Source: a virus. From it: DNA of 64,000 nt. This document shows, one piece after another, positions 52,918 to 60,589 of the stretch (position 1 is its first letter; every line of letters begins with the position of its first letter). The position numbers and the translations under genes are program-made. Below the pieces are notes generated by a model. The model was not told where the DNA came from. It was given only the letters and a program-made list of their open reading frames with translations, and did not search any database. The DNA is taken from IMG/VR virus record IMGVR_UViG_3300025015_000001; one strand, written 5' to 3'.

Positions 52918-54009
52918 TTATAGTCGAGGATCTATTTCTCTTGCACCGTAGTCTACCGCCATGCAGGCTATTATGAATTTATGATAAGCTTCAAATTTAT
53001 CGGGATTATTTAGATAAACTTTAAGAGCATTATCACTTAGTATAGTCTCATAATAAGCAATTTTCATTTTTCTATCTAGTCTTCTATTATGTTTTAATTT
53101 TTCTAATATTTCAGGTTCTTGATAATTAGCTCCATATATTATTTTGAGGTAGTCGCTACTTCGTACTTTTAGTTGTTGCTGTGGATATTTTGTGTTAGAG
53201 TATTGATGTACATTATTATATTTCAATACGAATCCTTCATATTTAAATTTATCTGTAATAGTATACCATAAAGAATTTAATATGTCAAGTTGATCTTTAC
53301 TAATAACTTCTGAAAATACGTATTGATAATAATTTTTGTTTTCAAAAATACTGCCCAAAGCTACCAGGTGTTCTTTATGAGTTTTATATACATTTTTGCC
53401 CATTCTATTTCCTATAGCTAATATAAAGAATGGAGCTATTCTAATATTATCTATGTTAACATCCCAACAATATCTTTTAATCACTTCGATATAGTCTTTT
53501 AAATTGCTGATATCATTATTTAAGTTAGCATCATTTAGATAGTTGTTTAGTTCTTTTTTAGTGACTAGACCGCTGTATCCTGCTAGTAAAAAATCTTCTT
53601 CTACTAATCCTGCGGCTTTAAAATTCCAAGGAAGTACTTCCGCATCTATACATATAAAATCCTCCTCTATCTTTTCAAATATATCTTTATTCATTTGATC
53701 TAGTAATGGTTCATATTCTTTACCAAAAAAAGTAAATCCATTTCTAGACCACGCCACAGACTCACCGTCCCTCCAAAATGCAAATGTACATCGACTACCC
53801 ATGTGCTTTACTTCAGCAATCAACTCAGTACTAGGCTCATCTGAATTATTAAACATCCATTCCGCAGTAGTAATAGGATCCTCCATATATTGAGGGAGGT
53901 CTGATACTGGACCTGGACACATTGTCGGTGACAACCATATAAGTTTATTTGGTGGTATTGTTTTTGTTGATAGCTTATTTATAATGTCTTGTACTATTTC
54001 AATTTTCAT
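52918..54009 (-). CDS. pnkp: Stand-alone Pnkp-type RNA ligase (adenylyltransferase) domain
   Basis: WLSPTMCP, EVKHMGSR (motif I Lys), DAEVLPW, EGFVLK, KVR..DYLKIIYG, terminal IDPRL; own AAGGAG RBS and in-frame upstream stop. Confidence 0.9.
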   Translation of the reverse strand: MKIEIVQDIINKLSTKTIPPNKLIWLSPTMCPGPVSDLPQYMEDPITTAEWMFNNSDEPSTELIAEVKHMGSRCTFAFWRDGESVAWSRNGFTFFGKEYEPLLDQMNKDIFEKIEEDFICIDAEVLPWNFKAAGLVEEDFLLAGYSGLVTKKELNNYLNDANLNNDISNLKDYIEVIKRYCWDVNIDNIRIAPFFILAIGNRMGKNVYKTHKEHLVALGSIFENKNYYQYVFSEVISKDQLDILNSLWYTITDKFKYEGFVLKYNNVHQYSNTKYPQQQLKVRSSDYLKIIYGANYQEPEILEKLKHNRRLDRKMKIAYYETILSDNALKVYLNNPDKFEAYHKFIIACMAVDYGAREIDPRL

Positions 54010-54156
54010 TAGTAAGCTCCTTTACTTCTTGTCTAAGTTTTCCTTTTAATTTATTACGGTTCTGCTTATCATATTTACTATCCATAACTCCAGCCGAGTT
54101 TCTAAATTTAGCAGCTTCTACTAGTGGATTTCTAATTTTTATTTTTTATTCTTCAT
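53999..54156 (-). pseudogene. Small basic ORF with a 1-nt frameshift in an A-run
   Basis: ATG AAG AAT AAA AAA TAA; one more A gives MKNKKIKIRNPLVEAAKFRNSAG...KELTNEN*. Confidence 0.45.
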
Positions 54157-54481
54157 TTAATATCAACTCTTTTTTTGGAAATTCTTTTATAATATCATTA
54201 TAGAATTTATTAGCGAAATTATTTATTATGGTATCCAGTTGCGATGGTTTATACATACTAATGTTTTTTTCTACTATGTCTAACCAGCAGTCAAATTTAA
54301 AATCCCATTTATTTTCTATTGTAATAAAATTTAGCTTATGTATACTCTCGTACTCTGTCAATTCTTTATTCACCCCAAAAGAGGATAAAGCTGATGTTAG
54401 AGCGGGACTATGCGACCTATGTGTACGTAAAGTCTCTCTTTTTAGATTGTACCATTTGTGCATAAGATTTTCTGTTAACAT
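54146..54481 (-). CDS. Hypothetical protein
   Basis: Packed operon ORF. Confidence 0.65.
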   Translation of the reverse strand: MLTENLMHKWYNLKRETLRTHRSHSPALTSALSSFGVNKELTEYESIHKLNFITIENKWDFKFDCWLDIVEKNISMYKPSQLDTIINNFANKFYNDIIKEFPKKELILNEE

Positions 54482-54838
54482 TTACTCTCCTTTGTCTACC
54501 ATAAATTTTAGTTGCTTATTTCTTAGGTTGGTAATTTTAATTGCGTCTTCTAATTGTAATTCCTTAAAATCATTTAATATATAAGTAAATATTAATAATA
54601 AACTCTTATTTTCATAAATAACTGGCCCACTCAACCTAGGCGAAATAGAATGTCCTATAATACTGCTGCTGGCCATACACATCGTATCAATATTAAAATT
54701 TACACCATCAACTAAAAATCTAAATTCACTATCTAAAGGAACATAGTCCACATCTGTATTGTCATGAACATTTTTACATATCTCTTTTATGCACCTTTTG
54801 CAAACTTCCCATTTCTCTAAATAAGATTCACTATTCAT
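54482..54838 (-). CDS. EL.LED motif family protein
   Basis: WEVCKRCIKEIC; ELQLEDAIKIT. Confidence 0.7.
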   Translation of the reverse strand: MNSESYLEKWEVCKRCIKEICKNVHDNTDVDYVPLDSEFRFLVDGVNFNIDTMCMASSSIIGHSISPRLSGPVIYENKSLLLIFTYILNDFKELQLEDAIKITNLRNKQLKFMVDKGE

Positions 54839-55209
54839 ATATATTCCTCCACATAATTAGGGTAGTAAGAGGTAGTATATATTATTTTTTTAATATTCTT
54901 TTCCCTTATAAGTATTTGACAAAATATACAAGGTTTACATATAGCCAATTCGCCATTCTTATTTTCTCTATAAACATATAAAGTTCCTCCGGCGGAGTTA
55001 CCTGCTTTTAACAAACAATCTATTTCAGCGTGAACAGAGTTTTGCCATCTACTGTATTGTCTATGTCTGTTGTGTCTAAGTTTATTAAAACCAGTACTTA
55101 CTACCTTTCCTTTATTCACAAGTATTGCTCCTATCTTAACTTTGTAATGATTTGATTTTTTGCTTTCTATTTTTGCTTTGTTAAGATAGTATAATATAGG
55201 GGTTTTCAT
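54835..55209 (-). CDS. Zn-dependent cytidine/dCMP-deaminase-fold protein
   Basis: HAE...KPCIFC. Confidence 0.85.
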   Translation of the reverse strand: MKTPILYYLNKAKIESKKSNHYKVKIGAILVNKGKVVSTGFNKLRHNRHRQYSRWQNSVHAEIDCLLKAGNSAGGTLYVYRENKNGELAICKPCIFCQILIREKNIKKIIYTTSYYPNYVEEYI

Positions 55210-55844
55210 GATTTAAAATCTCTACATTTTATTTTAGTTATAATACGATGGCCTCCGCGTGTAAAAAGTTCTATGACAGGACGTGCTACTATTCCCTCTG
55301 CTTTAAAATTTCCATATGTAGATTGCATACCAGTTTTAGCTAAAGTTACTGCATCATCTAAAGTTCCTGCTCCTATAATAGGGACTATTTCTAAGTTTAG
55401 TTTATTAGCAATATTTTCTACATCTTTACGCTGAAGCCACCACTCACCAATTTTAATATCGAATAAAACAAACTTTTGAACAGTAGAATAGCCTCCCCCA
55501 GATTGGATACCTGCGCCTATTCCTTCTCCATACAGACATATGTTGCATGGAGCGCCTTCTTCTATTCTAAATATTTCTTTGAATTTATTTTCCAATGGAA
55601 GAAAGAATGAATTAAGGTTATTTAATAATTTGGCGGGGATACTAGCATTATCTGTCTTCCCACCAAATGTTATACGATTACCATCATATAGAGTTCTTAT
55701 GCACATTCCATCAAGCTTCTCACTAAAAGACCACATGTTATTTTTAAGATATTCAAATTCAGGAATAGAATAATATCCCTCTAGTATTTTCTTAGTATGC
55801 TCATCCCTTTTGTATATTGTATTAATTTTATGGTATTCTCTCAT
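55206..55844 (-). CDS. Rnl2-type RNA ligase
   Basis: FSEKLDG, YGEGIG, FVLFDI, AEGIV, ITKIK. Confidence 0.85.
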   Translation of the reverse strand: MREYHKINTIYKRDEHTKKILEGYYSIPEFEYLKNNMWSFSEKLDGMCIRTLYDGNRITFGGKTDNASIPAKLLNNLNSFFLPLENKFKEIFRIEEGAPCNICLYGEGIGAGIQSGGGYSTVQKFVLFDIKIGEWWLQRKDVENIANKLNLEIVPIIGAGTLDDAVTLAKTGMQSTYGNFKAEGIVARPVIELFTRGGHRIITKIKCRDFKS

Positions 55845-56155
55845 CCCAACCTCCCATGTAGTTTGTTATGGCAATCATCACATACTATTATTCCTATATT
55901 ATTATCATGCTGATATTTTAATACATCTACTATAACATTTTTAATAAAATCTCTATTGCGCAAACCTAAGTTTGTAAACTTTAATTTAGCATTTTTTATT
56001 AACATGTTTAATTCTATCATATGGTGTACTTGTTTTTCTTCGAGGAGTAAATAGGCACCGCACTCCCTGCAAGTATCGTTACTAATTTTTAATTCGTTTT
56101 TCCAATTTTTGTAAGCACTATTATCTTTAATTTTTTGTCTGATAGATGCACTCAT
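55841..56155 (-). CDS. HNH endonuclease
   Basis: CRECG...QVHH...N...CDDCHNKLH. Confidence 0.8.
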   Translation of the reverse strand: MSASIRQKIKDNSAYKNWKNELKISNDTCRECGAYLLLEEKQVHHMIELNMLIKNAKLKFTNLGLRNRDFIKNVIVDVLKYQHDNNIGIIVCDDCHNKLHGRLG

Positions 56156-56379
56156 ATTTTATTATATTCTCTAGTAAGTTTTATCATAGATTCTAATGAC
56201 AATTCAAGTTCATTATTAAGAGTCATATTATATACGTAACAGATTGCATCTTCATACGTATTGAATTTATTCCGGTTCTCATGAGTCTCTTTATCGTACC
56301 ATACTCTAAAGTACTGCTGGAAGCTGTTTGGGCATACGGTGCTTATTTCTACTTCTGGTAGATTAAAATATGGTCCCAT
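56152..56379 (-). CDS. EL.LED motif family protein
   Basis: FNTYEDAICY...ELELSLESMIKLT. Confidence 0.7.
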   Translation of the reverse strand: MGPYFNLPEVEISTVCPNSFQQYFRVWYDKETHENRNKFNTYEDAICYVYNMTLNNELELSLESMIKLTREYNKI

Positions 56380-56381
56380 TA

Positions 56382-56603
56382 TTACGCCGCCTTTAATTTA
56401 TTATATTCCTTAGTAAGTTTTATCATAGATTCTAACGATAGTTCTAGGGCATTATTATACACCATATTATAGATGTAACAAATTGCATCTTCATACGTAT
56501 TAAACTGCCTGTACTGTGCAGATACGAGATACAACATATAGTTATTAGCTACTGTGTCCCACGCTAGCGTAAGTTCAGGCACTATAAATGCTTTCCACAT
56601 CAT
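56382..56603 (-). CDS. EL.LED motif family protein (paralog of 56152..56379)
   Basis: C-terminal half near-identical to its neighbour at DNA level. Confidence 0.7.
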   Translation of the reverse strand: MMWKAFIVPELTLAWDTVANNYMLYLVSAQYRQFNTYEDAICYIYNMVYNNALELSLESMIKLTKEYNKLKAA

Positions 56604-57973
56604 AGCCTCAAATTAATAATTTCGCCTCTATGATTTTCTACTTCTATCATAGAAGTATTTATCATATCCTGAATTGTTAAATCTGTATTCTCCTGTATCT
56701 CAAACAACTCAGGTTTACTACCATCATAAATTTGCTTAGATTTTACTTGTACTATTTCTTTCGCAGGAAAAGAATAAGAACTTAGCATTCCCCCGAAAAC
56801 CGCGCCAGTGTCGATGTTGATTGCGTTCTTATACTTTTTGGGGGATACCCCGCATACCGCATGACCAAAGACTACAAACGGACCAGTATAGGACCTCGCC
56901 CAATCAATTCTTATTGGGTGACCATTATCATCTTCTCCTTGGGTAGGACCATACATACAATAATCTGATATGTCTCTATGATATTTTCCTATAAATTTTT
57001 TATTAAACGCACCATGAGTTACTACTATCTCTTCTCCATTAGTATGCTTAAAATGATAATAAGATTTTAAATTCTTATACATAAACTCTCTTAAAGATTC
57101 TTTAGCTTCTTCCGGAATTTGATCTATTGTTTTCTGTAGGCCGTCCGCTATCCTAACTTTTCTTCCTGATAGCCATCTCATAAGTTTATTATCATGATTG
57201 CTCATGACCCACCATCCGGTGTTATTTTCCATCATATGTCTAGCCAGTTCTAAACACCGCCAATTATCCGGGCCACGATCTGCAATGTCCCCAACAAATA
57301 CTATCTTACGCCCACTAGGGTGCCATATTTTTTGCCCACCTATTATGTACCCTAACTTACCGAGTAATTCATTAAGCTCTGAGAACGTTCCATGAACATC
57401 TCCTATTATGTCTATTCCGTGGTCTATATTAATTATATTATTTGTATCTAATAATTCTACAGTAATTTCATCTTCTGGGTTTACTATGAAAACATTATTT
57501 TGTTTTTCGAGGAAAGAATATGCAGACTTAAATCTTGTTGCGTGTTTTTTGACCACGCTTTCCCCTACTTTAGCAAACTCATCCCTAAGATTGTCTCTTT
57601 CAATACAAGTTTCTAGTGGAGTATTCATTACTATATAATATATAGGAACATGACTAGCCTTAGCTATTTCCTCTAGTTTGTGTCTAGACTCAGGGCTAAG
57701 ATTAGTAGCATTAGCTACTGTAAGTTGATTATGCTTTAACTTAGCTTCTATCATTGCGTGGAAAATAGTGAAAGCGCCATCGTTAAATTTTTGTAATTCT
57801 TGTTGTGTGAGATTATTATATTCTGTATGTAACATTATTCTACACTTATCTGATGATACTATTGCATTAATATTTCTTACAGATTTAAAATATTTATTAG
57901 CAAAGTAGTCTTTACCGCTACCAGAAATACCTACCATTGCTATTAAAGAATTATTTGGTATTTTTATTAGCAT
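56600..57973 (-). CDS. pnkp: Pnkp kinase plus metallophosphoesterase half (no ligase domain)
   Basis: P-loop GISGSGK, SSD.CR; GDVHG, GDIADRG, NHD, HG, FGH, IDTG. Confidence 0.9.
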   Translation of the reverse strand: MLIKIPNNSLIAMVGISGSGKDYFANKYFKSVRNINAIVSSDKCRIMLHTEYNNLTQQELQKFNDGAFTIFHAMIEAKLKHNQLTVANATNLSPESRHKLEEIAKASHVPIYYIVMNTPLETCIERDNLRDEFAKVGESVVKKHATRFKSAYSFLEKQNNVFIVNPEDEITVELLDTNNIINIDHGIDIIGDVHGTFSELNELLGKLGYIIGGQKIWHPSGRKIVFVGDIADRGPDNWRCLELARHMMENNTGWWVMSNHDNKLMRWLSGRKVRIADGLQKTIDQIPEEAKESLREFMYKNLKSYYHFKHTNGEEIVVTHGAFNKKFIGKYHRDISDYCMYGPTQGEDDNGHPIRIDWARSYTGPFVVFGHAVCGVSPKKYKNAINIDTGAVFGGMLSSYSFPAKEIVQVKSKQIYDGSKPELFEIQENTDLTIQDMINTSMIEVENHRGEIINLRL

Positions 57974-58283
57974 TCTTTATCCCCTGTTTAATTTTAGTTA
58001 ACTGTAGCGCACTTTCAAAATCTAATTCTTTCTTAAATTTTTTGTCTATGTAATCAATACATTCTTTTAATGTATCAAAATTTTTATGCGGGACATAACG
58101 AAGTGCGTCAGCTGTTTTTAAATATAGTCTAAATTTGTTTGCCATAACACCCCATTCACATTTCGGGAATACTAAGATGTTAGTTATCCAAATAAGCCAA
58201 GTAGGACTGTTAATATCTTTGGTCTTATCTTTATACTCATCACATAAATATTTAGGACATTTTTTACAAGTTTCCCATTTCAT
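57951..58283 (-). CDS. EL.LED motif family protein
   Basis: WETCKKCPKYLC; ELDFESALQLT. Confidence 0.7.
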   Translation of the reverse strand: MKWETCKKCPKYLCDEYKDKTKDINSPTWLIWITNILVFPKCEWGVMANKFRLYLKTADALRYVPHKNFDTLKECIDYIDKKFKKELDFESALQLTKIKQGIKNANKNTK

Positions 58284-58866
58284 TTTTCACCTTTGTAATT
58301 GTGATTGCATCTTCTAAGCTAAGATTTTTCATCTGAAATAATAACATACTTAAGTTATCATTGATATCTATTTCATAACTCCTTCCAAATTCATATAGCA
58401 TAAATTTATTATCTACTGTAGATTTACATGGAGGTAACATTTTCCATTCATCGCTTGCTAATTCATTTGTTTTAAATATTGTACATAGTTCTTTGTTACA
58501 ATTAGTCCACCCACATGGGGCAGAATCCAGCCTACTGGCTAGACTAGATATAGTTGTGTAACTCTGATGGGCTGTTGTAAAACCGGCTGGAGGCAGCTTT
58601 ACGCTTAGTTCCCGGCCCAATGCAAGTGTTATCTTCAGCAACGTCTCGGTGGTCAGATTAGGCGTCCCGTTCAGCAATTTGGAAATAAAAGCGCGAGATA
58701 CGCCCAGTTTGTCAGCCAGCTCCGCCCTGTCGATACCCTTTTCCTCCATCGCGTTGCATATCTGTTCGGTGATACCCAATACCAACTCTTCGTGCTTGAA
58801 ATCAAAGGAGTCTTCATATTTTGCTATTTTTTCTTTCATCCATTCTGCGGCAGTTTTATTTGTCAT
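58264..58866 (-). CDS. XRE/HigA-like HTH domain fused to an EL.LED-family C-terminus
   Basis: RAELADKLGVSRAFISKLLNG..NLT..TL; AGGAG before ATG 58866; NLSLEDAITIT. Confidence 0.8.
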   Translation of the reverse strand: MTNKTAAEWMKEKIAKYEDSFDFKHEELVLGITEQICNAMEEKGIDRAELADKLGVSRAFISKLLNGTPNLTTETLLKITLALGRELSVKLPPAGFTTAHQSYTTISSLASRLDSAPCGWTNCNKELCTIFKTNELASDEWKMLPPCKSTVDNKFMLYEFGRSYEIDINDNLSMLLFQMKNLSLEDAITITKVKNEMGNL

Positions 58867-58901
58867 TTCATTTCTCCTGATAGAAGGCAATTCTCAGTTC
58901 T

Positions 58902-59162
58902 TTAGCCCTCTCGATTTCTTTCTTCGGCAACTTCTGTGTCTCTATCTATACTAAATGGGTGGTTTGCTTTTAGTGCGGCATTAGCTTTGACTATTAATTG
59001 TTGATTAAATTCGTACCTAAAGTTTTGTAAACTACTAATGGCTGTATCGAGTATTTTAATATTCTCCATTACTAATACAAAAATCCTACTAGTAGAATCG
59101 TTTTTCACAGTTACTCTTGACACATGCATATCCTTATCAAAATTTCTAATCACATGTTCCAT
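58902..59162 (-). CDS. Hypothetical protein
   Basis: GAGG RBS. Confidence 0.6.
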   Translation of the reverse strand: MEHVIRNFDKDMHVSRVTVKNDSTSRIFVLVMENIKILDTAISSLQNFRYEFNQQLIVKANAALKANHPFSIDRDTEVAEERNREG

Positions 59163-59230
59163 ATGTTAACACCTCGGAAAGCACTTAGGACAATTTACAC
59201 TATAGCTGTCACAAACATTTAATACTACTT

Positions 59231-60589
59231 TCATACCGCCCTCCTCTTAAGCACAACTCCAAACGTAGGATAATCTAAGACTCCTTTTTGTGTTACTTCT
59301 TTACCTTCTCCTATAGGGGAGGGTACTTCTAGTACTTGATATTGTTTATATTTATCTTGTACACCGAAAGCCCAGTTAGTCACCTCTGTATCTGTAAACT
59401 CAAACTTATGATCTTTATGCCGCAGCCCAGTAATCCCGAAGATACTATTATATAACGTATTAGGTGTAGTTATAAGAACGTATTTAGGCTTATAATAACC
59501 AAATATATTATCTATACTTTTACTTAATTGAAATTCTTCCATATGCTCGATAACCTCTTGCAGCACAAAGCAATCTTTGTTTAATAATTTTTCATCTTTA
59601 TATAGTAAAGAACTAAACCATATGTTATCCTGTAGTTTTCTATTATGTCTCTTAGCATGTATTATTGACGTTGGATTACAATCTACTCCATATAATTCTA
59701 AATTTTTATTAGGACTTAGTCTTTCTAATAATCTTCCGCTCCCACAGCCACAATCAACCACTGAAGTTACGTTAAGATTTTTTATCTGTTCTTCTATCCA
59801 CCTCAGTCTGTGTTCTCCTAAGTTTACTTTTTCTTCTAAGTTTACTTTTTCTTCTAAGGAAGTTTCTGTTTCCTGGTTCTCTGTAGTATTGGCAAAGTAC
59901 TTTTCTACTAACTTCTTTTTATACCTCATAAATCTATTTAGTATCAATGTCTGTAGTGGATGCTTCTTCACCCAGCCCTGCCCATGTTTTTCAAACTGGT
60001 TTGATAACAGTTCAGCATCTGGATTGAAATGAATGTAGTTATCTACAGTAGGAATCAGTATCATCAGCTTACTAAACAAATCTGAGATGGTTCCTATAGA
60101 TTTATATTCTATAGAATATACTTTAAATTTATTCCGCAGATACTCTATATCTTCTGATAGCTGTGTAACCACCACACCAGTATAGCCACAACCAGTAAAT
60201 AACTGTTCTATTATATCTGTTGGTAACGACGTGGTAAAAGGTAATAATTTTATTTCAAAATTAAAAACTATATCTTTATATTCTATAATGTCTTCTGCAT
60301 AGCTGTTGTTAATTGCTGTATTGAATGAGATCTTCAATTCTTTTAAAAATAAGGAGGACAATGCATACTCCCGATCTGTTACGTAGCCGTCTATATCATA
60401 TGCATTAGATTCTTTCCATAGTTTGTATTCTGGAAACTTGCAAGATATTACTACTTCACATTCATCTTGTAAATATTTAGGAAAGAAACATGTAAGATTA
60501 TCTTTAGTAAATATTTTAGCTGGGTGCTTCATTAGTGCGTAAGATAACTTATCAGCATTTGTCCCTTTAGTTTTTATTGATAGAAACAT
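59231..60589 (-). CDS. hen1: Hen1 RNA 2'-O-methyltransferase (N-terminal ligase-activating domain plus MTase)
   Basis: LSYALMKHPAK and YVTDREYALSS (Hen1-N); DCGCGSG, EVIEH, TPN..YN, RHKDHKFEF. Confidence 0.92.
   Translation of the reverse strand: MFLSIKTKGTNADKLSYALMKHPAKIFTKDNLTCFFPKYLQDECEVVISCKFPEYKLWKESNAYDIDGYVTDREYALSSLFLKELKISFNTAINNSYAEDIIEYKDIVFNFEIKLLPFTTSLPTDIIEQLFTGCGYTGVVVTQLSEDIEYLRNKFKVYSIEYKSIGTISDLFSKLMILIPTVDNYIHFNPDAELLSNQFEKHGQGWVKKHPLQTLILNRFMRYKKKLVEKYFANTTENQETETSLEEKVNLEEKVNLGEHRLRWIEEQIKNLNVTSVVDCGCGSGRLLERLSPNKNLELYGVDCNPTSIIHAKRHNRKLQDNIWFSSLLYKDEKLLNKDCFVLQEVIEHMEEFQLSKSIDNIFGYYKPKYVLITTPNTLYNSIFGITGLRHKDHKFEFTDTEVTNWAFGVQDKYKQYQVLEVPSPIGEGKEVTQKGVLDYPTFGVVLKRRAV

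Follow-up and report, generated by a model that had tools for sequence, protein, structure and literature searches.

The stretch of viral DNA studied here (64,000 nt from IMG/VR virus record IMGVR_UViG_3300025015_000001; the window) carries three RNA-repair genes, in which the domains of a Pnkp of the Clostridium thermocellum type are divided between two chains and accompanied by Hen1. All three open reading frames (ORFs) lie co-oriented on the minus strand with the boundaries first proposed. The hen1 gene (59231..60589, 452 aa) encodes a ligase-activating N-domain (residues 1-231; Pfam Hen1_L, E 4.8e-27) and a 2′-O-methyltransferase; in the Pfam search the N-domain was assigned to PF12623 and did not match PF22032. 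The kinase-phosphatase half of Pnkp (KP; 56600..57973, 457 aa) consists of a P-loop kinase (AAA_33) and a calcineurin-like phosphoesterase (Metallophos), with a stop codon after residue 457. The stand-alone Pnkp-type RNA ligase (52918..54009, 363 aa; PF16542, E 6.7e-52; motif I Lys68; C-terminal DPRL) follows 2.6 kb downstream of KP. Three ORFs separate hen1 from KP and at least seven separate KP from the ligase, all co-oriented. ORFs, gene ends and Pfam matches thus agree with the original prediction, made from the letters alone, as does a ligase ribosome-binding site, a GGAG Shine–Dalgarno motif 7 nt upstream of the start.

Among solved structures, the three products are closest to the kinase, phosphatase, ligase and Hen1 domains from C. 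thermocellum. Hen1 matched 3jwg and 4dqz, and an AlphaFold2 model of KP (mean predicted local distance difference test score (pLDDT) 91.5) returned 4j6o and 4gp7 as top Foldseek matches. Scores against the family models were low: Hen1 reached 234 bits with TIGR04074 (E 2e-69; cut-off 340), and KP and ligase reached 333 + 156 bits with TIGR04075 (cut-off 750), of which a fused relative, P0123, also falls short (522 bits). The virus record comprises 194,269 bp from groundwater metagenomes, with direct terminal repeats and an estimated completeness of 100%; tail sheath, baseplate wedge and head-closure proteins mark it as a phage.

A contig of depth 127 covers the entire stretch (the record may derive from its run), and contigs from a run of a second study cross the KP stop codon and the ligase start. 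The split is shared with two related phages: L004 (KP 88% identical) and contigs from SRR22387808 (KP 84%, ligase 80%). Computed against L004, the ratio of non-synonymous to synonymous substitution rates (dN/dS) within KP was 0.078 in the kinase, 0.168 in the phosphatase and 0.03 in the tail described below (0.13 for the whole of KP); the ligase has 0.088, and an Rnl2-like ligase encoded between the halves 0.131 (range across domains 0.03-0.17). As dN/dS is low in every domain, both Pnkp halves are maintained genes under purifying selection. We consider it probable that a fused Pnkp gene of a phage clade was split cleanly and that its separated products continue to carry out the reactions of Pnkp-Hen1.

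Position of the break and the tail of KP

Aligned with P0123, the closest fused relative (847 aa; 47% identity across the ligase), the last residue of KP and the first residue of the ligase adjoin with nothing lost, and the same loss-free abutment was seen against 38 other fused bacterial and viral Pnkps. The first reading of the locus was right in this respect, but not in placing the ends in the linker. In an AlphaFold2 model of P0123, residues 422-426 form a disordered linker, and ordered structure follows, with one helix at 429-436, a beta-hairpin at 439-452 and a second helix at 456-468; the break maps after residue 453, ~25 residues past the flexible linker and near residue 466 of the C. 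thermocellum protein (Cth). In the model, the cut falls inside the ligase N-terminal module and not in the linker. From model residue 436 onward, this module matches the Pnkp-C chain in 4E6N, a complex with Hen1-N (Z 44.3), and Rnl, the stand-alone ligase of the Capnocytophaga gingivalis Pnkp1-Rnl-Hen1 system (4XRU), aligns from model residue 456, which corresponds to Rnl residue 2 (Z 30.5). In structural position, the N-terminal start of Rnl lies within ~2 residues of that of the phage ligase. Judged by these superpositions, the phage ligase has essentially the Rnl boundary, and 28 residues of the ligase module remain on KP. An origin by a one-base frameshift at an internal Met codon was also considered, as it would fit the stop/start overlaps; it is unsupported because the fused relatives have no Met at that site.

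The 28-residue piece (KP residues 430-457; 56603..56686, minus strand), a helix and beta-hairpin that in fused Pnkp belong to the ligase N-terminal module, is a candidate docking tail. Whether it acts as a latch that tethers KP to the ligase we judge to be evenly balanced. Its pLDDT is ~50 in the model of KP alone and 83-90 in fused P0123, meaning that it is modelled as unfolded by itself and as ordered once the ligase follows; this is only suggestive, as sequences and alignments differ between the two models. The tail is identical to that of L004 at 28/28 positions and to that of P0005 at 22/28, and across the three phages it stays the same in length, hydrophobic pattern and precise end at a dS of ~0.5, with six synonymous substitutions and one non-synonymous.

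Several observations weigh against a latch. The tail is not significantly more conserved than the remainder of KP (Fisher p 0.25). Ligase folding and adenylylation do not need it, because the Cth ligase constructs 3TY8/3TY9, which start past this piece, still form ligase-AMP; Rnl also lacks it. Other stand-alone KPs, those of L187 and L188, end without a tail (the L188 record is 23% complete, so its missing ligase is uninformative). Moreover, CthPnkp(1-472) supplies a separate ligase with healed tRNA ends, and full-length CthPnkp works with T4 Rnl1 (PMC1920235), which makes fission at this point biochemically unsurprising. A serious contender, if a somewhat unlikely one, is an untethered arrangement, in which a free-standing KP heals ends in trans for all three ligases of the phage, its tail being either vestigial or of use to KP alone. 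The activity of Cth(1-472) in trans, the tail-independent formation of ligase-AMP, the tail-less ends of independently split KPs and the lack of significant excess conservation speak for it; the fixed length, pattern and end point of the tail, its substitution counts and its modelled ordering next to the ligase speak against it. The chemistry would be the same with or without a tether, and only the assembly of the complex would differ.

Active sites and two substitutions in the kinase

The catalytic residues of the phosphatase, ligase and methyltransferase are retained, as the original prediction had required. All nine essential phosphatase residues listed in PMC3675462 are present in KP (D192, H194, D229, R233, N259, H260, H320, H371 and D388). 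The ligase has motifs I-V, the insertion and the C-terminal module belonging to the PNKP ligase domain; it keeps the invariant K68, E124, E258, K263, K281, R283 and terminal DPRL. Hen1 has the metal and S-adenosylmethionine motifs of the methyltransferase, and its E345, E348, H349 and H394, which we take to be the metal ligands, are invariant across 58 homologues. One feature counts against a conserved pathway: the ligase insertion module lacks ~20-26 residues relative to Cth, P0123 and P0002, and this is the part that binds Hen1-N in the Pnkp ligase. The module is likewise short in L004 and similarly so in the fused P0124.

The kinase is less regular. It retains K21, D42, R45, T90 and the lid arginines, and three of the four residues essential in Cth (Lys21, Ser22, Asp38 and Arg41) are kept; the position of Ser22 is Asp. 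At codon 22 (57908..57910, minus strand), Asp replaces the Mg-binding Ser of the P-loop, giving GKDY instead of GKST, and at codon 88 (57710..57712, minus strand), Asn replaces a conserved Asp (Cth Asp78), turning DATN into NATN. The second change had been noticed before and is real, while the first had been overlooked. The two occur together in 3/3 split phages and in 0/96 other scored homologues, and P0006, an 85% identical relative, has the canonical Ser/Asp pair. The tree does not separate the three split phages and P0006, so the pair probably arose as one event.

Two lines of published work suggest that such a kinase may be impaired. Ser22 of the Cth kinase is essential by alanine scanning and is the sole protein ligand of the Mg (PMC3902929). 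In P-loop enzymes, Ser/Thr(K+1) and the Walker B Asp are typically hydrogen-bonded partners; single changes at this pair are usually inactivating, and a Walker B Asp-to-Asn change usually blocks catalysis (10.1101/2022.06.23.497301). We infer that the position of Cth Asp78 is that of the Walker B Asp. T4 Asp85 is offset from it by one residue and was not used as evidence.

The likelier reading of the sequences is nevertheless a compensated Asp22/Asn88 metal site in a working kinase, because the dN/dS of 0.078 is the lowest among the catalytic domains, the P-loop of a deoxynucleoside monophosphate kinase-like ORF of the same phage likewise reads GKD, and KP is the sole polynucleotide kinase that a genome-wide look for AAA_33/phrog_505 kinases found in this complete genome. 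A dead or weak kinase, retained for a scaffolding role in dimerisation or RNA binding, is unlikely. The system would then be confined to 3′ phosphate removal and methylation and would depend on a host kinase or a pre-existing 5′-phosphate. The essential Ser22, the effect of Asp-to-Asn changes in many P-loop enzymes and the canonical residues of the close relative P0006 favour this alternative. Strong purifying selection, the retention of K21, D42 and R45 and the lack of a second polynucleotide kinase among those searched for are at odds with it, as is the occurrence of two changes at contacting positions, which is what compensation predicts. The coupled Ser-to-Asp and Asp-to-Asn changes amount to an experiment of nature on the Walker A-Walker B pair.

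Proposed pathway and comparison with known systems

In the proposed pathway, gene anatomy, the loss-free break, motifs, selection and the three phages come from the present data, and the chemistry and the dependence on Hen1-N come from established work on bacterial Pnkp-Hen1, which heals, methylates and seals (PMC3675462, PMC4411300). After clean fission of a fused phage-clade gene, whose halves are now separated by 7-8 small genes, KP would heal both RNA ends and Hen1 would methylate the 3′-terminal 2′-OH. The Hen1 N-domain would then switch on the stand-alone ligase, which would seal a junction resistant to recutting. The kinase would function with its Asp22/Asn88 metal site, and the 28-residue tail may re-dock on the first helix of the ligase and so tether the chains. 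KP could heal ends for other ligases too: the genome encodes three RNA ligases (Pnkp-type, Rnl1 and Rnl2-like), and KP probably serves all of them, because Rnl1 and the Rnl2-like enzyme are present and KP is the only polynucleotide kinase found. The split is not required for this. Rnl1, RlaP and Thg1 (G000:C1 83326-84453, 85179-85784 and 103024-103533, respectively), together with two tRNAs, round out a broad RNA-repair kit.

The substrate may be tRNA or rRNA cut by host defence, and an anti-defence use against tRNA or rRNA nucleases is suggested by analogy with T4 and by jumbo-phage surveys (PMC7824862). Against this, PMC4411300 reported that the in vivo substrates had yet to be identified even for bacterial Pnkp-Hen1. 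A further, rather unlikely extension would be that a reversible latch and the rewired Asp22/Asn88 Mg site let KP switch between the Hen1-coupled methylating route and Rnl1 or the Rnl2-like ligase, defeating host tRNA and rRNA nucleases beyond the reach of unmethylated repair.

Bacterial Pnkp-Hen1 (C. thermocellum and Anabaena variabilis; TIGR04075/TIGR04074; reference structures PDB 4GP7, 4J6O, 3TY5/8/9 and 4DRF/4E6N) has four catalytic domains of the same families as the phage system and shares with it the calcineurin-like phosphatase, the Hen1_L N-domain, the ligase motifs and the C-terminal DPRL. The phage differs in having Pnkp in two chains, hen1 and pnkp genes that lie apart, Asp22/Asn88, a shorter insertion and equivalog scores that are too low. 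By its sequences, the phage system appears to work like Pnkp-Hen1, with neither the single chain nor the operon.

The C. gingivalis Pnkp1-Rnl-Hen1 system (PMC4411300; 4XRP, 4XRU) resembles the phage in that healing enzyme, free ligase and Hen1 are three chains, the N-terminal boundary of the ligase is nearly the same and the genes can be apart. Its ligase had been taken to be of another type, which proved incorrect: Rnl and the ligase domain of Pnkp are homologous, Rnl is active as a separate chain (PMC4411300), and the phage ligase matches Rnl 4xrp_B (phmmer E 1.4e-9), in line with the structural match given above. What differs is the healing enzyme, a T4-like kinase with a HAD phosphatase in Capnocytophaga, whereas the phosphatase of the phage KP is of the Metallophos family, and on account of this enzyme the phage is not a member of Pnkp1-Rnl-Hen1. 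The Hen1 N-domain is of the PF22032 type in Capnocytophaga and of the PF12623 type in the phage; the two ligases share only ~17-20% identity, and the systems have separate origins.

Among mobile elements, PNKP and Hen1 have been reported for phage XacN1 (PMC5852040) and Pnkp1-Rnl-Hen1 clusters for Borgs (PMC11208441). A stand-alone Pnkp-type ligase was found in five cultured phages (XacN1, Vibrio RYC and sm033, Stenotrophomonas CM1 and RAS14), which, like the Borgs, share Hen1-type repair and such a ligase with the phage studied here. None of these cultured phages or Borgs has a tail-bearing Cth-type KP; in RYC and sm033, Hen1 matches PF22032 and is fused to a T4-type kinase-HAD protein. T4, with its Pnkp and Rnl1 for tRNA repair against PrrC, is likewise phage-borne with separate healing and sealing, and our phage has Rnl1 too, but T4 has a HAD phosphatase and no methylation step. 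Our literature search found no paper on a Cth-type KP with a free ligase and Hen1; its coverage was incomplete, and 'undescribed' is therefore provisional.

What sets this locus apart is a break at the Rnl boundary that leaves a tail on KP, together with the paired substitutions in the kinase. The clean split itself is genuine, though a moderate variation, in a system often rearranged by phages. It represents an architectural intermediate between two characterised Hen1 systems, with healing domains of the C. thermocellum type and an Rnl-like free ligase. A naturally split Pnkp with a short linker could help to obtain a holoenzyme structure for Pnkp-Hen1, reported as unsolved in PMC4411300 (2015), and with a copy carried by a phage one can ask directly if methylated repair works against defences that cleave tRNA. 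The impact is limited, as neither phage nor host is in culture and phages commonly show rearrangements of this kind.

The insert, relatives and neighbouring genes

The insert between the halves consists of 7-8 small, packed genes, the content of which varies among the split phages (one relative has a TnpB-like gene). An Rnl2-like minimal adenylyltransferase (55206..55844, minus strand, 212 aa; PF09414, E 1.4e-14; T4 Rnl2 1s68, E 3.9e-5) and a Zn-dependent deaminase of the dCMP deaminase/TadA-like kind (54835..55209, minus strand, 124 aa; dN/dS 0.08) are present in all three. A small HNH-like protein (55841..56155, minus strand, 104 aa; PF01844, E 6e-5) has an orthologue in L004 (dN/dS 0.12); with regard to the homing-endonuclease 'genes in pieces' arrangement of the Aeh1 nrdA/mobE type, this weakly scoring HNH gene sits in the insert, one to two genes away from the break. 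It is very improbable that fused Pnkp is restored during infection by removal of the insert through DNA excision, RNA splicing or ribosomal bypass. Such restoration would fit the absence of any lost residue and the Leu-type codon found, in the window as in L004, just before the KP stop and again before the ligase ATG. On the other hand, no joint skipping the insert was present in four DNA runs, an Rfam search gave no match and no conserved repeats were found at the insert borders. Neither RNA structure, border repeats, a recombinase nor a joined form thus points to an intron or excisable element at the DNA level, and the insert is made of selected genes of variable content, with a ligase that has its own ribosome-binding site. 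An assembly artefact or a decaying pseudogene pair, suggested by nothing more than the unusual layout and the kinase substitutions, is a negligible prospect given an identical KP on 19 contigs, coverage of both insert ends by the second study, the same split in three phages and purifying selection throughout.

We also surveyed the wider family; the counts come from best-hit samples and not from random ones. All of the 80 best loci in GTDB genomes were fused. Among 80 metagenome loci, 72 were fused, 6 truncated and 2 not fused, and the 11 IMG/VR loci comprised 3 fused genes, 4 Hen1-ligase fusions and 4 with a separate ligase ORF. The 149 cluster representatives divided into 68 with Hen1 and ligase, 41 with kinase or phosphatase and ligase, and 40 with the ligase only, many of which are perhaps fragments. 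As to the survey for further splits suggested at the outset, the same split recurs in the two related phages and we found no description of it, and separation of the Pnkp-type ligase from its healing domains is frequent among phages. Scans of IMG/VR with single sequences and clade alignments returned zero additional members of the split clade.

In the tree, the split clade groups with three fused proteins and L009 (SH-aLRT 100). The same divergent ligase clade holds the L009/L187 operon, fused P0123, and L184 and L186, phage-like contigs on which hen1 adjoins a fused pnkp. L009 and L187 share with our phage the Cth-type KP and the Hen1 neighbour; the cut lies earlier, directly after the phosphatase, the genes are adjacent and the kinase is canonical, whereas P0123, L184 and L186 are unsplit. 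The L009/L187 split is, by sequence, an independent fission. Its three-gene hen1-KP-ligase operon (L187:10001-13815, L009:4183-8000) lies among tRNA synthetase and dnaX genes on contigs that look cellular, and a TROVE/Ro60 gene is found 10 kb away. In RYC (L001:12094-15311) and sm033 (L002:4256-7665), an unannotated Rnl stands beside the Hen1-kinase-HAD fusion, which is annotated only as polynucleotide kinase; both phages are in culture and would allow tests of the system.

Other architectures were also noted. Hen1-ligase fusions of ~810-920 aa without kinase or phosphatase (P0135, P0140 and 66 further cluster representatives; L015, L016, L017, L019, L195 and L197) are numerous, several of them on viral contigs, and most form a clade of their own; this set is possibly a bigger story than the split Pnkp. 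A viral open frame of 1424 codons (L016/L196) has Hen1 and ligase domains and ~600 unexplained extra residues. Stand-alone kinase-phosphatases of 415-495 aa (P0021, P0037, P0044, P0064, P0074 and others), often with a DSTA motif, include some Chloroflexota proteins on long contigs and others that may be fragments.

Within the window, a promoter/terminator scan was at chance level (58 vs 45.7 ± 8.0). An XRE-type helix-turn-helix gene between hen1 and KP (58264-58890) is missing from the SRR22387808 relative, and a 53-aa ORF (53999-54155), which in L004 overlaps the beginning of the ligase gene, here seems to carry a frameshift close to its own start. A 111-nt direct repeat (84%; 56155-56265 and 56394-56504) encodes the C-terminal domain that two small, paralogous ORFs have in common, and C-termini of a similar kind occur in several small genes nearby.

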